A stretch of 64,000 nucleotides of DNA from Mustelus asterias. Its lineage: Eukaryota. The DNA lies in the NCBI RefSeq assembly GCF_964213995.1, contig NC_135817.1:70804001-70868000 (forward strand), written 5' to 3'. Positions 21,621 to 58,046 of the stretch are shown here, one piece after another (position 1 is the stretch's first letter; each line of letters opens with the position of its first letter). The notes below the pieces were generated by a model. The model saw only the letters and a program-made list of their open reading frames with translations, was not told the DNA's origin and did no database searches. A program made the translations under genes and the position numbers.

Positions 21621-21920
21621 TAATTTACCATGTGATCCCTGCAATATTAACCAGGCAAACTTGAAAACTCGAGGAAAACAGGTAACGGGAATTTTTAGCA
21701 AAAACTCAAGGACACCAGGAACAAAGCCTTGTGAGCAGATTCCGAGCCTGTCCGTGGCTGATATCCCGAGATGTGATCCATTACATATTCATTGTGAGTC
21801 CCTGATCCAGGGTTGAGCCTGACATTGAGAAGTTGGTGGTGGGAGGGAATTAGTAGAAACCAGCTGCAGCTGCTGTTTGAGGGTTTTAATTCATTTAGGA
21901 TGGACACAGGAGAGGACACA

Positions 21921-22253
21921 GGGGCGGCACGGTAGCACAGTGGTTAGCACTGCTGCTTCACAGCTCCAGGGTCCCGGGTTCGATTCCCGGCTCGGGTCAC
22001 TGTCTGTGTGGAGTTTGTACATTCTCCTCGTGTCTGCGTGGGTTTCCTCCGGGTGCTCCGGTTTCCTCCCACAGTCCAAAGATGTGCGGGTTAGGTTGAT
22101 TGGCCAGGTAAAAAAAATTGCCCCTTAGAGTCCTGGGATGCGTAGGTTAGAGGGATTAGCGGGTAAATATGTGGGGTGGGATTGTGGTCGGTGCAGACTC
22201 GATGGGCCAAATGGCCTCCTTCTGCACTGTAGGGTTTCTATGATGATTTCTAT
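21921..22253 (+). mobile_element. Full-length HE1 SINE (tail A, HER1/CR1-derived)
   Basis: A box cagtggttagc, B box ggttcgattcc, V-domain core, tail gatgggccaaatggcctccttctgcactgtaggg...ttctatg. Confidence 0.92.
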
Positions 22254-24328: not shown

Positions 24329-24503
24329 TTAAATACCATTTGTAATGACCATTTTGGAATGTCTGTAACATTTCTTGACTGTATTGAAGGACCTTGGAGT
24401 GTATGTAGAGAACCCGATATTATTGTACTTTATGTGATGACCATTTTGAAATGTTTGTAATTTTTTTTCAGATATTTTATGAATAAAATATATTTTTGCA
24501 AAA
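24329..24503 (+). mobile_element. Probable Tx1/L1 LINE 3' UTR fragment
   Basis: AT-rich UTR ending ttttatgaataaaatatatttttgcaaaaa. Confidence 0.5.
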
Positions 24504-24645
24504 AGAGAACGGGCCATCATGTGACTCTGATTGGAGCATTCCTGTGAGGTGTTCCTCACGGGTATCCTGAGCTAAGTTTGAGGAATGTATAGCTTGGGTC
24601 CTATCACTCAGTCCTCTAAGTCTAGGATTAAAAGCAGAGAATACT

Positions 24646-24956
24646 GCTTCTCGGCCTTTTGGCTAAGATCAAGTGTAGTTATGCGGATGCTGCACTTGGT
24701 TGAGGTCATTGGGTTACATTTAAGCTCCATTTTCATATGAAGCAATTTTTAAAAGCGGCATCTCGGCCTTTTGGCTAAGATGCAAATGAGATCAAGCTTT
24801 GGAGGAGGAAGACCTGCGTCTACTCCAATCAGCTTGGCTCATGTAGATCAGGCCCAAGACAGGGGTTGCGGATCCTGTCTTGTCAGCTTGGATTGGAAAT
24901 GTCTCAACTTGTTGAGACTCTGAATTGGACTTGATTTGATTAAATTGGAATTTTAA
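24646..24956 (+). mobile_element. U2 snRNA-headed retroposed element (SINEU/Keno-like)
   Basis: 24646-24679 identical to U2 snRNA nt 4-37; second U2-like segment at 24758-24781; A-rich end; TSD aaaagcagagaatact(g) at 24630-24646 and 24957-24973. Confidence 0.88.
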
Positions 24957-25294
24957 AAAAGCAGAGAATACTGGAACTACTCAACAGGTCAGGCAGCATC
25001 TGTCGAGAGAGAAACAAAGTTGACGTGAAAAATCTCACCAAAAATGGCAGTGTTGGTTCTGGCATATTTTGGGGCCATATCTTCTGCTTCATTAGTGATT
25101 ATTTTTACGCCCAGGAGTTTCACACCGCCCCAACAGTGCATTCCCTCTGATTTGTCTGCTTCATAACGACTTAACTGATAAAAGTACGGCGGGGGGGGGC
25201 GGGGGGGGGGCTGGCGGGTGGTAAAGGGGAGACATTTATATGGGCGTTCCATATAAACAGCTCCCCAGCACTTGTTCCACAAAGTCTGAAGGAG

Positions 25295-25460
25295 ATGGCA
25301 GGCAGGAAGGCAGCAGCACACTTTTCAGAGGGGGCCCTCACCAGGATGCAGTGCAGCAGAGACAGGACACACTCTACCCCCACTCCAGGAGACAGCCTTC
25401 TCCAGGAGATGGCATTCCAGCAAGGTCACCACCCCCACCTGGGATGCAGTGACAGGGTGA
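25295..25460 (+). mobile_element. Harbinger Myb/SANT-like remnant followed by a partial HE1 SINE (25460-25630)
   Basis: AAAHFSEGAL / DAVQQRQDTLYP fragments. Confidence 0.5.
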
Positions 25461-25879
25461 CACAGCTGCCTCACAGCTCCAGGGACCCGGGTTCGATTCT
25501 CGGCTTGAGTCACTGTCGGTGCAGAGTCTGCACGTTCTCTCCGTGTCTGCGTGCCTCCGGGTGCTCCGGTTTCCTCCCACAGTCCAAAGATATGCAGGTT
25601 AGGTTGACTGGCCATGCTAAATTGCCCCCTTGTGTATTCATGCAGTAACCCAGTGTTCGCACTCATTAGAAAGAGAGAGAGAGCCTGTACATTCTTAAAA
25701 GAGAACCATTACTCCAAATAAAAACAGGAATTACAAATGAAGCCTTCTTGTTTAGGAACTGTGATTGCCTAACAAGACGTAGTTTGAAAAAAATTATTCC
25801 AACTAAAACAAAACAAATAGTACAAATTCAGAAAGAAGAGGGGAGGAAAAGTTAAAGAAAGTACCCGGATTTAATAACT

Positions 25880-38708: not shown

Positions 38709-41700
38709 TGTGGTGAACCATCGTTGGTTCACCACTGGGGTTTGTTACTATGTTACTGTTGGGCTAGGGTGTTGTTACTGTGGGGGTTGTACTATGTTGT
38801 TGGGTTAGGGTGTTTACCTGTTATAAGAGTTATCATGGCACATTCCAGTGGGGTCCCGCCTCCGGTGGCGAGGTATAAGACCCCCTGCTCCGGCAGGACT
38901 CCTTCAGTCTGAACTGGTGTATTCGTGTTAGTAGTTCCATTGTTACTTTATTAAAGCCTTCAATACCGAAGCCTTGGTTCCATGTGCTTATTGACGCGCG
39001 TCAATTTAATAAAGTAAACAGAAAACTCACAACTGTGCAACAAGAAGAAAAAAACAGAGAGTATGGAACAGATTCTAAAACCGGATCGTCTGACACTGGA
39101 CCCACGTGCGGTCGGTGCAGCTAACACATTCGACCATTGGTGGAAGTGCTTTGAGGACTACCTGGCAGCCTCGGTAGCTATCACTACGGACAGTGATAGA
39201 CTCCAGGTCCTCCACGCAAGGGTAAGCGACACGATTTACCTAGCCATTCGTGCAGCTCCCACTTACCAGGGTGCCGTCGAGCTCCTACAGAAAAGATACA
39301 CTATGCCACTCAACGAGATACACGCTCGTTACCTCCTCGCTACACGACGTCGGCAGTCGGGCGAAACCATGGAGGATTATGCCAATGAGCTCCTGCAGCT
39401 TGCCAGGGGTTGCGACTGTAAGGACGTCTCCGCCGAACAGTATATGTACGACCTCGCCCGAGACGCGTTCGTAGCAGGGGTAGGGTCCTCGTACATCAGG
39501 CTTAAATTGCTAGAAAAGGGGAAACTCAACTTAACCCAGGCAATGGAGATGGCCGTGAGGTTGGAGGCGGCGTCGAAGAGCTTGGCGCTGTACCCCGAGG
39601 ACCACGTGCAGTCAACGTGGTTGGAGCAAGCTCAGCTCCCTCCTCGCCCCGCGAACCCGCGCTCCCAGATCGATTCGACGACGGTGGCAGCTCCAGGTGG
39701 CCAGCGATGCTATTTTTGTGGAGGGGCCAAGCATCCACGGCAACAGTGTCCGGCAAGAACGGCAATCTGCAGCCAGTGCGGTAAAAAAGGCCACTACGGC
39801 AAAGTCTGCAGGTCCAAACCTAAAAACGGCAGTGCAGCTTGTAACCCTCCAGAACGGAGACCATCTCTTTCGGCGTTGCAGTACCCACGAGGTCCGACCA
39901 CGTGCGATCTCAGGACGGCGCCATCGTGGCAGACAGAGGAGGAGGAAGACCACCAGGAGTCGCTGCGCTTGGCGCCCTCGCCCACGTGCGATTCATGGGG
40001 GCGGCCATCATGGTCCACGACGACTAGGAGCGACCAGCAGGGGTCTTCAGCATCCACATCGGCAGCATGCAGTGACGCCCAGGGGCCAACGGTGGCGTCG
40101 ATCTCCCTGGATCAGACCAAGCATTACAGACTGGAACATTCTATGATGGAGGTAAAGGTTAGTGGCAGAACTGTGAATTGTCTGTTTGACAGCGGAAGCA
40201 CCGAAAGTTTCATACACCCTGAAACTGCTAAAAGGTGTGGACTCCGGATTCTCCCTGCCAAACAGACAATTTCCATGGCATCACGGTCCCGGTCTGTACC
40301 GATCCAAGGACGATGTATGGTAACTCTTGAGGTACAGGGCACAATTTACGAGCAATACAGGCTCCTTGTGCTACCTCACCTTTGCGCGCCAATTCTCCTC
40401 GGACTAAACTTTATGGTCCACATGAAGAGTGTGATCCTACAGTACGGTGGGCCACTCCCTTCACTGGCAGTAGGGAATCCGCCGCAGCCTCCAAATTGCC
40501 CAAAGCGCCCCGCGTGCAATTTATCCACCCTGAAGATCACGACACCATCCCTTTTTAAAAATCTGGTTCCTGGCTGCAAGCCCATCGCTACTAAAAGTAG
40601 GCGTTACAGCGCTGAGGACCGGATCTTTATTAGATCTGAGGTTCAGCGGCTCCTCAAGGAAGGGATCATACAGGCCAGTGCTAGTCCGTGGAGAGCGCAG
40701 GTCGTGGTAGTCAAAAGCGGGAACAAACCTCGGATGGTCATCGACTATAGTCAGACCATTAATAGATACACGCAGCTGGATGCGTATCCTCTCCCGCGCA
40801 TTTCTGATATGGTCAATCAGATTGCGCAGTACCGAGTGTTTTCTACCATAGACCTTAAGTCCGCCTACCATCAACTCCCCATCCACCCAGAGTACCGACA
40901 ATATACGGCTTTTGAGGCGGATGGTCGTCTATACCAATTCCTCAGGGTTCCATTTGGTGTCACCAATGGGGTCTCGGTCTTCCAGCGTGCTATGGACCGA
41001 ATGGTGGACCAGAACGGGTTGCGGGCTACCTTCCCGTACCTGGATAACGTCACCATCTGCGGCCATGACCAGCAGGACCACGACACGAATCTCCAACACT
41101 TTCTGCGCACTGCATCTCGCCTGAATCTGACCTATAACAGGGAGAAGTGCGTATTCCGTACGCGTAGGTTAGCCATCCTCGGATACGTGGTGGAAAACGG
41201 GGTCATTGGCCCTGATCCAGACCGTATGCGCCCACTCACTGAACTTCCCTTGCCCGCTAGCACGAAAGCACTGAGGAGATGCCTCGGGTTTTTTTCATAT
41301 TATGCACAGTGGGTCCCCAACTACGCGGACAAAGCCCGTCCGCTCATTAAGTCCACGACCTTTCCACTTACGCCGGAGGCCCAATTGGCCTTCAAGGTTT
41401 TGAAGAGCGACATCTCGAAAGCCACGATGCACGCGGTGGATGAATCCATCCCTTTCCAGGTGGAGAGTGATGCATCTGACTTCGCCCTAGCCGCCACACT
41501 AAACCAGGCAGGCAGGCCCGTCGCGTTCTTTTCCCGCACCCTTCAAGGCCCAGAAATTCGGCACTCAGCGGTGGAAAAGGAGGCTCAGGCCATTGTGGAG
41601 GCAGTCAGACACTGGCGCCATTACCTGGCAGGTAAGCGGTTCACCCTGATCACGGATCAACGATCCATGGCGTTTATGTTCAGTAACACGCAGAGGGGCA

Positions 41701-43480
41701 AGATCAAGAACGATAAGATCTTGCGGTGGAGAATTGAGCTCTCCACCTATAATTACGATATTATGTATCGTCCAGGGAAGCTCAATGAGCCCTCGGATGC
41801 CCTCTCGCGCGGAACATGCGCCATCATGCAGGAGGACCGCTTGAAGGCTCTCCACAATGATCTGTGTCATCCTGGAGTCACCAGACTCTACCACTTCATC
41901 AAAGCCCGCAACCTGCCTTACTCGGTGGAGGATGTCAGGTCAGTGACGAGAAGCTGTCGGATTTGCGCAGAATGCAAACCACACTTTTATCGACCAGACC
42001 GGGCACAATTGGTCAAGGCCACTCGCCCTTTTGAGAGGCTGAGTGTGGATTTTAAGGGCCCCCTTCCCTCAACGGACCGGAATGTCTATTTTCTCAACAT
42101 AATAGACGAGTATTCCCGGTTTCCGTTTGTTTTCCCCTGTGCGGACACGTCAACTGCCACCGTCATTAAGGTTTTCAGTGAACTTTTTACCCTGTTCGGG
42201 TACCCCTGCTACATTCATAGCGACAGGGGCTCGTCGTTCATGAGCAACGACTTGAGGCAATTCCTGCTCTCATTCGGGATTGCCTCTAGTAGAACCACGA
42301 GCTACAACCCTAGGGGTAACGGACAGGTGGAAAGGGAGAATGCTACAGTCTGGAAGGCTGTCCTACTGGCACTGAAATCCAGGGGCCTTCCAGTCTCCCG
42401 TTGGCAGGAGGTCCTTCCAAATGCGCTCCATTCTATCCGCTCCCTCCTGTGTACGGCAACCAATGCTACTCCCCACGAGAGGATGTTCTCATTCCCTCGG
42501 AAGTCGTCCTCGGGGACCTCATTGCCAGCCTGGTTGACGTACCCAGGACCCGTCCTTCTGCGGCGCCATGTGAGGGCTCGCAAGTCCGACCCCTTGGTCG
42601 AACCAGTCCAACTCCTCCACGCCAACCCTCAGTATGCCTATGTGGCATATCCTGACGGGCGAGAGGACACTGTCTCCATTAGAGACCTGGCGCCCGCAGG
42701 GGACGTAGCAACTCCTGTCGCTCCTATTCCCCCAGTCACGAATCCACTACTCCTCATTACTTCCCCAGACGTGGCGCGGTCAGCACCGGGACCAGTGCAT
42801 AACACCTTTACTCCCATGTACAGCTTGCCTGAGACTCGGAGATCGGCGCCACCATCATCATCACCACCACCACTACCACCAAACGTTCCAGGATCCCCTG
42901 CACCATCGCCTCACCAGGGCCGGCCGGCCCGGGAGTCCTTGAGGGGACAGCCAGACGTTGCTTTGGAAAGAGCGCCACCACAAGCACCTGCTCCGGTTTC
43001 GCAACTGGTGTTGAGGAGATCGGCACCTGCTCCGGTTTCGCAACCGGTGTTGAGGAGATCGCAGCGTCGGTGCGGTCCTCCAGACCGTCTGGACTTGTGA
43101 ATCCTGTGATTTTTCTGTTATTGTCTGTTTATATGACCTGTTTTTCGTCCACCCCGCCACCTTTTGTTCTTAAAGGAGGGGTGAATGTGGTGAACCATCG
43201 TTGGTTCACCACTGGGGTTTGTTACTATGTTACTGTTGGGCTAGGGTGTTGTTACTGTGGGGGTTGTACTATGTTGTTGGGTTAGGGTGTTTACCTGTTA
43301 TAAGAGTTATCATGGCACATTCCAGTGGGGTCCCGCTTCCGGTGGCGAGGTATAAGACCCCCTGCTCCGGCAGGACCCCTTCAGTCTGAACTGGTGTATT
43401 CGTGTTAGTAGTTCCATTGTTACTTTATTAAAGCCTTCAATACCGAAGCCTTGGTTCCATGTGCTTATTGACGCGCGTCA
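38709..43480 (+). mobile_element. Intact, recently inserted Ty3/Gypsy LTR retrotransposon (Mag-like)
   Basis: 295-bp LTRs 38709-39003 and 43186-43480 (2 differences seen), TG...CA, 5-bp TSD ATTCA, PPT aaaggaggggtgaa 43172-43185. Confidence 0.97.
39063..43100 (+). CDS. Gag-Pol polyprotein (1345 aa): Gag with two CCHC knuckles, protease, RT, RNase H, integrase
   Basis: CYFCGGAKHPRQQC, CSQCGKKGHYGKVC, LFDSGS, YLDN, DASD, HHCC and D-D-E (VDFKG, HSDRG, QVER). Confidence 0.96.
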   Translation: MEQILKPDRLTLDPRAVGAANTFDHWWKCFEDYLAASVAITTDSDRLQVLHARVSDTIYLAIRAAPTYQGAVELLQKRYTMPLNEIHARYLLATRRRQSGETMEDYANELLQLARGCDCKDVSAEQYMYDLARDAFVAGVGSSYIRLKLLEKGKLNLTQAMEMAVRLEAASKSLALYPEDHVQSTWLEQAQLPPRPANPRSQIDSTTVAAPGGQRCYFCGGAKHPRQQCPARTAICSQCGKKGHYGKVCRSKPKNGSAACNPPERRPSLSALQYPRGPTTCDLRTAPSWQTEEEEDHQESLRLAPSPTCDSWGRPSWSTTTRSDQQGSSASTSAACSDAQGPTVASISLDQTKHYRLEHSMMEVKVSGRTVNCLFDSGSTESFIHPETAKRCGLRILPAKQTISMASRSRSVPIQGRCMVTLEVQGTIYEQYRLLVLPHLCAPILLGLNFMVHMKSVILQYGGPLPSLAVGNPPQPPNCPKRPACNLSTLKITTPSLFKNLVPGCKPIATKSRRYSAEDRIFIRSEVQRLLKEGIIQASASPWRAQVVVVKSGNKPRMVIDYSQTINRYTQLDAYPLPRISDMVNQIAQYRVFSTIDLKSAYHQLPIHPEYRQYTAFEADGRLYQFLRVPFGVTNGVSVFQRAMDRMVDQNGLRATFPYLDNVTICGHDQQDHDTNLQHFLRTASRLNLTYNREKCVFRTRRLAILGYVVENGVIGPDPDRMRPLTELPLPASTKALRRCLGFFSYYAQWVPNYADKARPLIKSTTFPLTPEAQLAFKVLKSDISKATMHAVDESIPFQVESDASDFALAATLNQAGRPVAFFSRTLQGPEIRHSAVEKEAQAIVEAVRHWRHYLAGKRFTLITDQRSMAFMFSNTQRGKIKNDKILRWRIELSTYNYDIMYRPGKLNEPSDALSRGTCAIMQEDRLKALHNDLCHPGVTRLYHFIKARNLPYSVEDVRSVTRSCRICAECKPHFYRPDRAQLVKATRPFERLSVDFKGPLPSTDRNVYFLNIIDEYSRFPFVFPCADTSTATVIKVFSELFTLFGYPCYIHSDRGSSFMSNDLRQFLLSFGIASSRTTSYNPRGNGQVERENATVWKAVLLALKSRGLPVSRWQEVLPNALHSIRSLLCTATNATPHERMFSFPRKSSSGTSLPAWLTYPGPVLLRRHVRARKSDPLVEPVQLLHANPQYAYVAYPDGREDTVSIRDLAPAGDVATPVAPIPPVTNPLLLITSPDVARSAPGPVHNTFTPMYSLPETRRSAPPSSSPPPLPPNVPGSPAPSPHQGRPARESLRGQPDVALERAPPQAPAPVSQLVLRRSAPAPVSQPVLRRSQRRCGPPDRLDL

Positions 43481-55921: not shown

Positions 55922-57540
55922 TTAGACCAACAATACAATTTTTAGATGTATAATTCTTTGTTCTTCTTCTTTCCTTCTTCGTTTCTTCTGATGTCTTTGG
56001 GGCTCTTCATCAGGGTTTCTTCTTCGATGTATACACTGGCTCCTGGCACAATTCATGTCACCATCACCTTGCAACAGACTTTTAGGCATCCAACAATGAG
56101 ACAACAGACAATTACAATTGAAATGAGTATGACCAATCCATGTAATAAGTAAGATTCCCAGGACCCCCCCACTAGCCATTCCAGCCAGTTACTTCCTTTC
56201 TTGGGTCCCTGTCTGAAGCTATCAAGTTGTTCTCTGATGCTATTGATGACCTGTGTAATGTTATAGGACTCGTCTGTGACATGGGTTATGCATTTATTGC
56301 CTATAATTGTACACACTCCCCTTGTTGTGCTAACTGATAGTCCACTGCGTATTGTGTCTGTTATGCATATAATCTCAGTTCAGCCATTTCTTGGTTGACA
56401 GCCTCCAGTGCTTTTGAAGTGCTGTTTCCCAGGACTGTTAGTCCACAAACAATATGATTCCTATTCTTTGCACTAATCACTCCTGCTGCCCCCTCCAGAG
56501 ATAAGGCTCCAAGGAACCCATATCCCAGTGAGGATCCCATTGTGCCCGGGGCTTCCCAGTCAGCGCAGAATTCTTTGCTGATAGCCTGAGTTACTATTCT
56601 CCTCCGAATATGCCCCTTTTGAGGGCACGGAACAGTCAGTGGTCTGATTGTTCCTACTGCAAAACGGTTTGGGAGGTTTGGTGTTTCTGTCATGTAAGTA
56701 CCATTGAAGAGGAATACATATCCCTTCTTAGCCCAGTAACATTTAGTGTCCCGATTATGAGTTTGTTTATATTGCCAATTGTTTGGTTTACTTGACACCC
56801 CGTTTGATCCCACCACCTGGTAAATATCAAATGGGTATGTCCATTTGTCTGAGCTTACGTGAGTTCCATTGCATTGTCCACAAATAAGCTGTCTTCCCGC
56901 AGATATATTCAGACATTTCTGTTCATCACAAGTGCAAGTAAACTGTCCCTTATTAACCCGACAATGTTGACAGACACACTGCGTCTGTACGCAGGAATCA
57001 TTCTTAGGGACCAAGGCATAGGCACATCCCCATCCCTGCCCCGTAAAACGAAGCGGATAGCTTGCATTATCTGAACAAGCTTTTCCTCCCACCTGTTGGA
57101 ACCCCCTGCACACAGGATCTGTGGGGTTTACAAGTCCCACACATCTCCCCTGTATATCTCTTTTATATTTGCCAATTTGTCCCTTACAGGGTGCATCTGA
57201 TGTATCTACTGATTATAAGTCATGAGGGGTCCACCCAGGGGTGGCGACAAATAGGGCTTCTACCGATTGTGCTAACAGGTAACATACAGTTCGATTCCTG
57301 TGTAAATGTATGTGAGCTTTGTAAAACAAGTTATCCTCCAATCCAGTCAAATTTACAGTCACGACAACGCAAAGTAGTACAGTTACATACGCGATTACAT
57401 ACATATTCGCAACAATCAAATATCAAACCTAACACTATAATTCTTATAATCTTTACAAGTTATATTATCTATCAACCCACGCGCGCCAGCCGTTCTTGCT
57501 TGCAGTCTTTGCCTGCGTTGAGGAAAGCATTTTCGTTAGT
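55922..57540 (-). pseudogene. env: Retroviral env (SU-TM), disrupted by stop and frameshifts
   Basis: Basic cleavage site HIRRR, fusion peptide GFLGALSLEGAAG, ISD-like QTQYAVDYQLAQQG, CX6C, TM LLHGLVILISIVIVCCLIV. Confidence 0.88.
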
Positions 57541-57552
57541 TCATCAATTTAA

Positions 57553-58046
57553 TTACTTATTTGTCCCCTTGTATATTTTTAGCTGTGTCCAATGCTTCCA
57601 GACCCCTTTCCCTCTTATGTCTAGACAGGCACAGGTGTCTCCACTAATTATAACCTCATATGGCCCATTCCATTTTGGTGCAAACCCTTGTTTTTCAGGT
57701 AATGTTTTTACTAGGACGCGACTTCCCGCTGTTGGAATGTCAGGGAGCACTTCAAGCTCTCTCTCTGCGTCTTTTATTTCCTGATTGTCCTTTACCAATT
57801 TGCGCATCCTTTTTAGTTGGGTGCTTAGTTCCAGAACATATCTCCTGATTTTATCTTTTAGTGGACCTACATCGGTCCAACCTGTTATGATGCTTTCGGG
57901 TAATTGCATCACCCGTCCTGTCATTAGCTCATAAGGGGTTAATCCGGTTGTCCGGTTTGTGGTAGCCCTTAATCTCATTAGTATAGTGGGCAATACCTCT
58001 GTCCACATTTTTCCCGATGTTTGTATGGCTTTAGCTAATGCATTTT
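57553..58046 (-). pseudogene. pol: Retroviral integrase C-terminal fragment
   Basis: WTEVLPTILMRLRATTNRTTGLTPYELMTGR and PKWNGPYEV motifs. Confidence 0.88.

Follow-up and report, generated by a model that had tools for sequence, protein, structure and literature searches.

A U2 snRNA-headed SINE family in the shark Mustelus asterias and its likely Tx1 partner LINE

Layout of the insert in the window

The window analysed here is a 64,000-nucleotide stretch of the Mustelus asterias genome, and it holds a short insert whose features are collected in Table 1. A first-pass annotation had placed an insert with a long target-site duplication (TSD) at this locus, and the insert, its coordinates and the duplication all hold, with the two flanks forming an exact 17-bp direct repeat. 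The same annotation read the head as nt 4-37 of U2 snRNA, which comparison with the genome's own U2 gene bears out at every position. A second U2 copy had been proposed at 24758-24781; this stretch is identical to U2 at 23 of 24 positions, and the alignment can be extended as far as about U2 nt 33. One 20-mer taken from the head has two occurrences in the window, where 0.02 would be expected. Searching the insert against Rfam returned U2 with an E value of 2.6e-7, just below the gathering score, and no other family below E 2. Pieces of U1 and U4 were absent around the window copy at E ≤ 10 and in four loci at E ≤ 1.

Some of the finer claims required adjustment. All three hairpins described earlier are present, but the one at 24901-24918 folds into 7 bp with a 4-nt loop rather than an 8-bp stem. 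Likewise, the Sm-like T run exists but is non-canonical, lacking the G that follows the genuine U2 Sm site. We also found an inverted arm, a degenerate reverse copy of U2 nt 11-37, which had been overlooked. The insert contains five T runs and no match to the A or B box patterns. With U2 alone found by Rfam and the boxes absent, a classical pol III SINE with a tRNA, 7SL or 5S head was rejected.

Table 1. Features of the U2-headed insert, in window positions
Feature	Positions	Strand	Evidence
Left TSD, 17 bp; its last G is also U2 nt 4	24630-24646	+	
Head, U2 snRNA nt 4-37; stops at the Keno/Tx1 insertion site	24646-24679	+	34/34 against the genome's U2
Subfamily-diagnostic loop	24680-24688	+	253 exact head-junction matches
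Degenerate inverted U2 nt 11-37; predicted pairing masks the head, including the branch-site sequence	24689-24715	+	
Small hairpin, loop variable; the window copy has one changed base in the stem	24724-24743	+	
T run resembling an Sm site, but non-canonical; would terminate pol III	24744-24750	+	
Inner U2 piece (about nt 4-33); extended stem I; contains the octamer-like 24780-24787	24758-24788	+	
Long predicted hairpin, taking in 24799-24828	24786-24842	+	
Predicted hairpin including the stem 24855-24882; loop differs between subfamilies	24846-24893	+	
Near-invariant 3' hairpin, inside the 30-mer counted 4,535 times	24901-24918	+	
Tail: short repeats, then an A-rich tract at the end	24919-24956	+	
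Right TSD	24957-24973	+	

Other mobile elements share the window. By its motifs, a 1,360-aa open frame at 39018-43100 (forward strand) resembles the gag-pol of an LTR retrotransposon, and 56361-58044 (reverse strand) holds retroviral-looking fragments of integrase-like and env-like character. Copies of an abundant tRNA-type SINE, putatively HE1/V-SINE-like, lie at 21920-22230 and 25460-25640.

Copy number, target sites and predicted structure of the family

The insert belongs to a large family. A 30-mer from its 3' part has 4,535 exact matches in the genome (control, 0), and because this 30-mer was present in only 48 of 61 copies chosen independently of it, the count points to a total of roughly 5,700 copies or more. 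A DNA search returned 3,361 candidates; 40 of the 40 that were scored proved near full length, with 93-100% identity, and they lay on many contigs. The first-pass annotation had held that the insert is not an ordinary U2 pseudogene. This was correct, as its body is multi-copy and neither U2-only nor the product of a single event, and the single-copy outcome that would have spoken against the annotation fails before a family of thousands. The 40 near-full-length matches and the 4,535 copies of the 30-mer together rule out a one-off chimera or a U2 retropseudogene.

When 142 near-full copies were clustered, 127 of them fell into nine groups of at least five members and 15 were left over. Copies of the 300-330 nt unit are 96-98% identical to the majority sequence of their own subfamily, and the window copy departs from its own majority sequence at 8 of 302 positions. 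All nine majorities carry a head of U2 nt 1-37/40, and the inner U2 piece is wholly missing in just one of the 142 copies. The family is young and comprises about nine subfamilies and no fewer than 4,535 copies.

We examined 5' ends in a positional sample of 112 copies from 90 loci on contig C1. Of these, 72 begin at U2 nt 1-9, including 20 at nt 1. Among 31 full-head copies starting at nt 1 there is no common base at -1 or -2. Twenty of 109 assessable copies directly abut the tail of a preceding copy. Of the 89 solo copies, 38 are flanked by TSDs of 10-23 bp; for the other 51 our script detected no TSD of at least 10 bp. In four loci (L066, L106, L138 and L153) the head starts at about U2 nt 29-30, straight after another copy's tail, and these starts perhaps mark a second cut site in the head.

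The TSD-defined sites also bear on how the family chooses its targets. The TT/AAAA site and its L1-type reading, which the annotation had put forward, stand for the window copy but not for the family: TT|AAAA occurs at just 1 of 38 sites, which rules it out as a family-wide target. Instead, GY precedes the A at 12 of 30 sites compared with a 10% background (p 1.7e-5), in a test confined to the upstream GY, since TSD calling beside an A tail in part dictates an A at +1. In this, the target sites of the family resemble the U2 site, AGT|AT.

The RNA is predicted to be highly structured. Folding the whole insert gave -111.2 kcal/mol, compared to -86.8 ± 4.9 in 100 shuffles (z = -5.0). In the window's subfamily, the arm matches U2 nt 11-37 at 15 of 27 positions, with eight transitions and four transversions, and all eight transitions are of the kind that preserves G-U pairing. 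The other eight majorities are similar in the arm, with one pair-breaking transition in all. Head plus arm reaches -30.3, compared to -19.3 ± 2.5 when the arm is shuffled, and none of 500 shuffles was equally stable. Under the predicted fold, which would mask the head, U2 nt 29-36 are paired in eight of the nine subfamilies and nt 29-34 in the ninth. Substitutions (p 1e-4) and gaps (p 3e-10) are biased to loops, a bias that is partly circular because the structure was derived from the same alignment. Covariation in the stems, to which the first-pass annotation had looked, did not rise above shuffles by any measure: among 30 copies, a change in both partners is seen for 1 of 75 pairs, and 74 of 500 shuffles reach the score.

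Two of the 142 copies have strand-specific clusters of A-to-G changes, L138:1009-1343 (reverse strand; 22 versus 6 other changes) and L090:940-1285 (reverse strand; 15 versus 5), in which paired and unpaired A are equally affected. These look like RNA hyper-editing copied back into DNA. Eight other organisms, with word shares of 0.21-0.64, offer a lead on how far the family may have spread; smaller shares were disregarded.

Insertions at U2 genes and a Tx1 LINE with a U2 head

Intact U2 genes of type A form arrays on contig C24, with periods of 1,833 and 8,035 bp. Type B genes (170-175 bits), about 90% identical to the main U2, lie on contig C21 at 28.05-28.08 Mb (L198-L201), in units of about 450 bp. 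The type-B cluster has four intact U2 copies amid Tx1 insertions, and its promoter is putative, which counts against any account based on promoter capture.

The family enters these genes. At nine places the SINE tail runs directly into U2 nt 38-52 (control, 0), so loci with a U2 remainder downstream, as the first-pass annotation had envisaged, do exist. Eight of the nine junctions keep the SINE body; the ninth, L058, is a tail alone. There, at 1500-1560 on the reverse strand, an old SINE-type tail without a body is followed by U2 nt 38 onward, and the whole lies downstream, by about 450 bp, of an exon of a cytokine receptor (IL10RB-like) for which 11 of 11 homologs come from sharks or rays. 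Where the 1,833-bp array ends (L050), a whole series of insertions can be read in order: 500 bp of U2 upstream DNA, U2 nt 1-39, the SINE body and tail, a TSD resembling U2 38-56, a 5'-truncated Tx1 element with its A tail, U2 38-55, a second SINE, and finally U2 38-191 with downstream DNA.

The element that shares this site is a 5.6-kb LINE. In the 8,035-bp unit it sits at U2 nt 37/38, and that copy is interrupted. It encodes a ZCCHC3-type RNA-binding domain, a CCHC motif, an AP endonuclease, a reverse transcriptase and a zf-RVT domain. A stop-free open frame of 1,144 aa occurs at four places, and the L203 copy has ORFs of 353 and 1,135 aa, where the 1,135-aa ORF2 is open and the 353-aa ORF1 is possibly partial. 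Among at least 120 homologs listed, one is named TX1 149 kDa protein (46% identity). Like the SINE, the LINE begins with U2 (nt 1-33/35), and its 5' end is likewise predicted to fold over its own head. Dispersed copies are not tied to U2 genes: none of 20 sampled LINE 3' ends lay at U2, and 3 of the 20 were closely followed by SINE or U2-headed sequence. The two elements also share TSDs in tandem: one TSD is common to a full-length LINE and three SINEs at L208 and to a truncated LINE and two SINEs at L202.

Apart from the U2 pieces, SINE and LINE have no more in common than a short motif in the tail and, perhaps, some 10 nt that follow the inner piece. The Tx1 UTRs did not match the SINE body and were rejected as its source. 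We also rejected an internally deleted LINE of the SIDE type, as neither end of the SINE is LINE-homologous beyond the U2 pieces and the tail motif.

At L046 (C24:44.81-44.94 Mb), about 15 near-identical 8,035-bp units each pair one intact U2 gene with an interrupted Tx1; this is a broken Tx1 at the U2 site amplified together with the array. A tRNA-type SINE-like insert breaks ORF2 of the arrayed Tx1. At L172 on contig C7, U2 nt 1-39 lies flush to a Tx1 3' UTR alone, behind type-B upstream DNA, and this is possibly a newborn non-autonomous element and a picture of how such elements arise. In the window itself, the AT-rich stretch at 24440-24505, 125 bp upstream of the insert, looks by eye like a Tx1-type 3' end; it gave no BLAST match to the partner LINE.

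Copies behind U2 promoter DNA, which had been proposed as candidate master loci, were found as well. At L050:4551, within the array, the SINE stands flush behind 500 bp of U2A upstream DNA, and six more copies stand flush behind type-B upstream DNA, one in the C21 cluster and five dispersed. L174 is a seventh type-B flush copy, and its small-hairpin loop is that of the window copy's lineage. In flush copies the gene's own nt 1-33/39 act as the head of the element, directly after the U2 upstream DNA. The LINE shows the same arrangement behind type-B upstream DNA at L199, L201, L175, L177 and L178. By eye, the upstream regions of the two gene types have a proximal-element-like stretch in common, to which we give no weight.

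Some of this upstream DNA has been transduced. In L096, a retrocopy flanked by TSDs, type-B upstream DNA (about 93 nt) precedes the head, and L057 is a TSD-flanked unit of about 1.6 kb of type-B sequence holding three SINEs. Judging from these sequences, RNA from SINE loci behind U2 upstream DNA was likely retrotransposed. Copies that bring U2 upstream DNA with them show read-through, not initiation at +1. We discounted CCGGC before three dispersed copies as a promoter remnant, because it is too short, and set aside L054/L245 as ambiguous, since with U2 on either side it might have inserted into a U2 fragment.

Proposed route of copying and relation to known elements

Taken together, we consider it probable that this U2-headed SINE family is copied by a U2-headed, Keno-like Tx1 LINE and transcribed from captured U2 promoters. 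Both elements are found inserted in U2 genes, their 3' ends lying at nt 37/38, and in some insertions nt 1-33/39 of the gene serve as the head right behind U2 upstream DNA. Such flush junctions could form if the U2 head of the cDNA anneals to the cut gene, as has been proposed for R2, which would leave the element at the +1 position of the promoter. Pol II would then make capped RNA from transient source loci, and in that RNA the functional U2 end would be hidden by the inverted arm. Tx1 ORF2 would prime internally, at the A-rich tract of the tail, and paste copies at loosely U2-like sites, generating TSDs of 10-23 bp and tandem stacks. With this, two readings that the first-pass annotation had kept apart, a shark snRNA-headed SINE and a non-autonomous U2-targeting element, merge into one. 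Weighing against this route are the missing common base at -1 or -2, the lack of body sequence common to SINE and LINE, the LINE 3' ends away from U2, the covariation result and the 51 solo copies that gave no TSD, besides the source-locus searches described below.

A SINE inside a U2 gene, flanked by its TSD, would have U2 from nt 1 to nt 37 plus the length of the TSD in front of it, and its offspring are predicted to bring along additional U2 sequence that stops near nt 47-60. A search for such pieces returned 23 matches, of which 22 were kept; L255 was left out because it had inserted, with a TSD of its own, into a site resembling U2. The 22 pieces end at nt 46-57, the range in which the in-array TSD junctions also end, and their lengths compare well with TSD lengths (medians 13.5 and 15; KS p 0.81). 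A control anchored at U2 nt 59-69 gave no matches, and over the range examined, up to about nt 90, no piece ends at nt 58 to about 65 or at nt 69 to about 90. By eye, none of the 22 copies has U2 upstream DNA, 20 have no U2 behind the tail, and about 12 have an outer TSD of at least 10 bp around the whole unit. Three have the junction of the window copy. The 22 junctions are mostly unlike one another, and many short-lived source loci are therefore needed.

The same search bears on an alternative that we think unlikely but that deserves most attention. Here, the SINE is still mobilised by Tx1 but transcribed from flanking or host promoters or by read-through from LINEs and stacks; the extra U2 is added event by event through a template switch to U2 snRNA, and the copies inside U2 genes are dead ends. 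Mostly different junctions are what such switching would produce, and similar U1 extensions are read in this way in the relevant section of PMC4494074. The 20 of 109 copies lying directly behind another copy also fit read-through. Additionally, we did not find a source locus for the window's subfamily: exact-pattern searches for a locus that has this copy's own junction and stands flush behind a promoter gave 0 of 4 and 0 of 6 for the window copy, and in the former search three of the four matches had just 4-5 promoter-like bases. The main U2 array holds a single flush copy, and this one is missing the inner piece seen in 141 of 142 copies; it therefore is not the source of the others. Against template switching, extra pieces end solely within the TSD range, as do the in-array junctions, and some retrocopies bear U2 upstream DNA, which is absent from mature snRNA.

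A promoter inside the element, either an octamer with a cryptic proximal element or a pol III promoter, might instead drive its own copy or the next one in a stack. Tandem stacks are common and the octamer is kept in most copies, yet we regard this as improbable. The octamer that the first-pass annotation identified at 24780-24787 is present, but it aligns to U2 nt 26-33 with one insertion and is better read as mutated U2; no octamer within one mismatch occurs in either U2 upstream region. These two results rule it out as a captured distal element, and the five T runs and missing A and B boxes speak against pol III. Mobilisation by an L1-clade element with a TT/AAAA preference, which would make the copies in U2 genes incidental, suits the window copy with its TT/AAAA site and 17-bp TSD; it is very improbable given the single such site among 38 and the U2 site and tandem TSDs common to the SINE and the Tx1 family. 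Finally, a domesticated U2-derived regulatory RNA with retrocopies as by-products is barely credible: the strong fold (z -5.0) and the placement of indels and substitutions in loops are set against at least nine young subfamilies, no sign of a single conserved source gene, a non-canonical Sm-like run and no covariation signal.

The closest known family to the U2-headed SINE is crocodilian SINEU. As described in the relevant sections of Kojima 2015 (PMC4494074), SINEU-1, -2 and -3, which go with Tx1-Mar, were found solely in crocodilians and are tied to Mariner-N4_AMi, and the transcription of SINEU is left open there, with snRNA promoters lying outside the transcribed region. As far as that account extends, the two have much in common: a U2-derived head, repeated U2 pieces, a length under 500 bp, an A tail, internal T runs, absent pol III boxes, tandem copies around one TSD, 5' snRNA extensions and a Tx1 partner with an snRNA head, which in the shark is the candidate LINE. 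In both, a non-coding, A-tailed unit has been amplified with a fixed structure and is not a sum of chimeras. Unlike SINEU, our family lives in a shark, prefers U2 nt 37/38 over Mariner-N4_AMi, has an inverted arm predicted to mask the head, and includes flush copies behind U2 upstream DNA, which are not reported in the relevant sections of PMC4494074. In its proposed workings the family resembles SINEU and R2 SIDEs, but because the host differs and any homology between the bodies is putative, we did not file it under SINEU-1 to -3.

Similar comparisons can be drawn with retroelements that target multicopy genes. Keno (Tx1 clade) and Utopia are U2-targeting LINEs (excerpts of PMC4640811; Keno also in PMC4494074); PMC4640811, in the part concerned, counts downstream U2 from nt 39; A38 merges with the A tail. 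The partner LINE resembles Keno in having two ORFs with an AP-type endonuclease and a Tx1-like reverse transcriptase, and, going by these excerpts, resembles both Keno and Utopia in its 3' junction at U2 nt 37/38. Unlike Keno as described there, it carries a U2 head and its copies are largely dispersed (none of 20 sampled 3' ends at U2), and unlike the Keno and Utopia LINEs the insert itself encodes nothing. Features that the system would have in common with R2 and R2 SIDEs, as outlined in sections of PMC3774820 and PMC3414825, are transcription as part of the targeted gene and flush 5' junctions that result from target sequence carried upstream on the cDNA. By the same sources, the system differs from R2 in that the target is a pol II snRNA gene and the head reaches the transcription start, so that no ribozyme would be needed, and from R2 SIDEs in not being an internal LINE deletion and in having thousands of copies outside the target.

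A paper on shark SINEs (PMC5499810) makes no mention of snRNA, SINEU or Tx1, and the passages on snRNA-derived heads in PMC5786205 and PMC5381603 cite SINEU alone. Among the papers listed in literature searches, including the best 25 of 1,048 and the best 30 of 392, none concerns a shark snRNA-headed SINE. The present family extends snRNA-headed retroposons to sharks and places U2 arrays under continuing retroelement attack. With named loci that place the element at +1 after U2 upstream DNA, and with a likely partner LINE whose ORF2 is open, the question of how snRNA-headed SINEs are transcribed becomes testable. A Tx1 protein with a preference for the U2 site and a short, structured cargo RNA is also a candidate tool for targeted insertion.

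We are inclined, with some reservation, towards a broader view of this SINE-LINE pair, in which the head common to both is the target itself. With U2 nt 1-37 as its head and a cut at nt 37/38, each element would rebuild its source locus at the +1 position of a host snRNA promoter and hide the U2 end of its RNA, and U2 arrays would serve as short-lived breeding grounds. If true, this would be a general route to retroposons that have an snRNA head and no promoter of their own, possibly including crocodilian SINEU.
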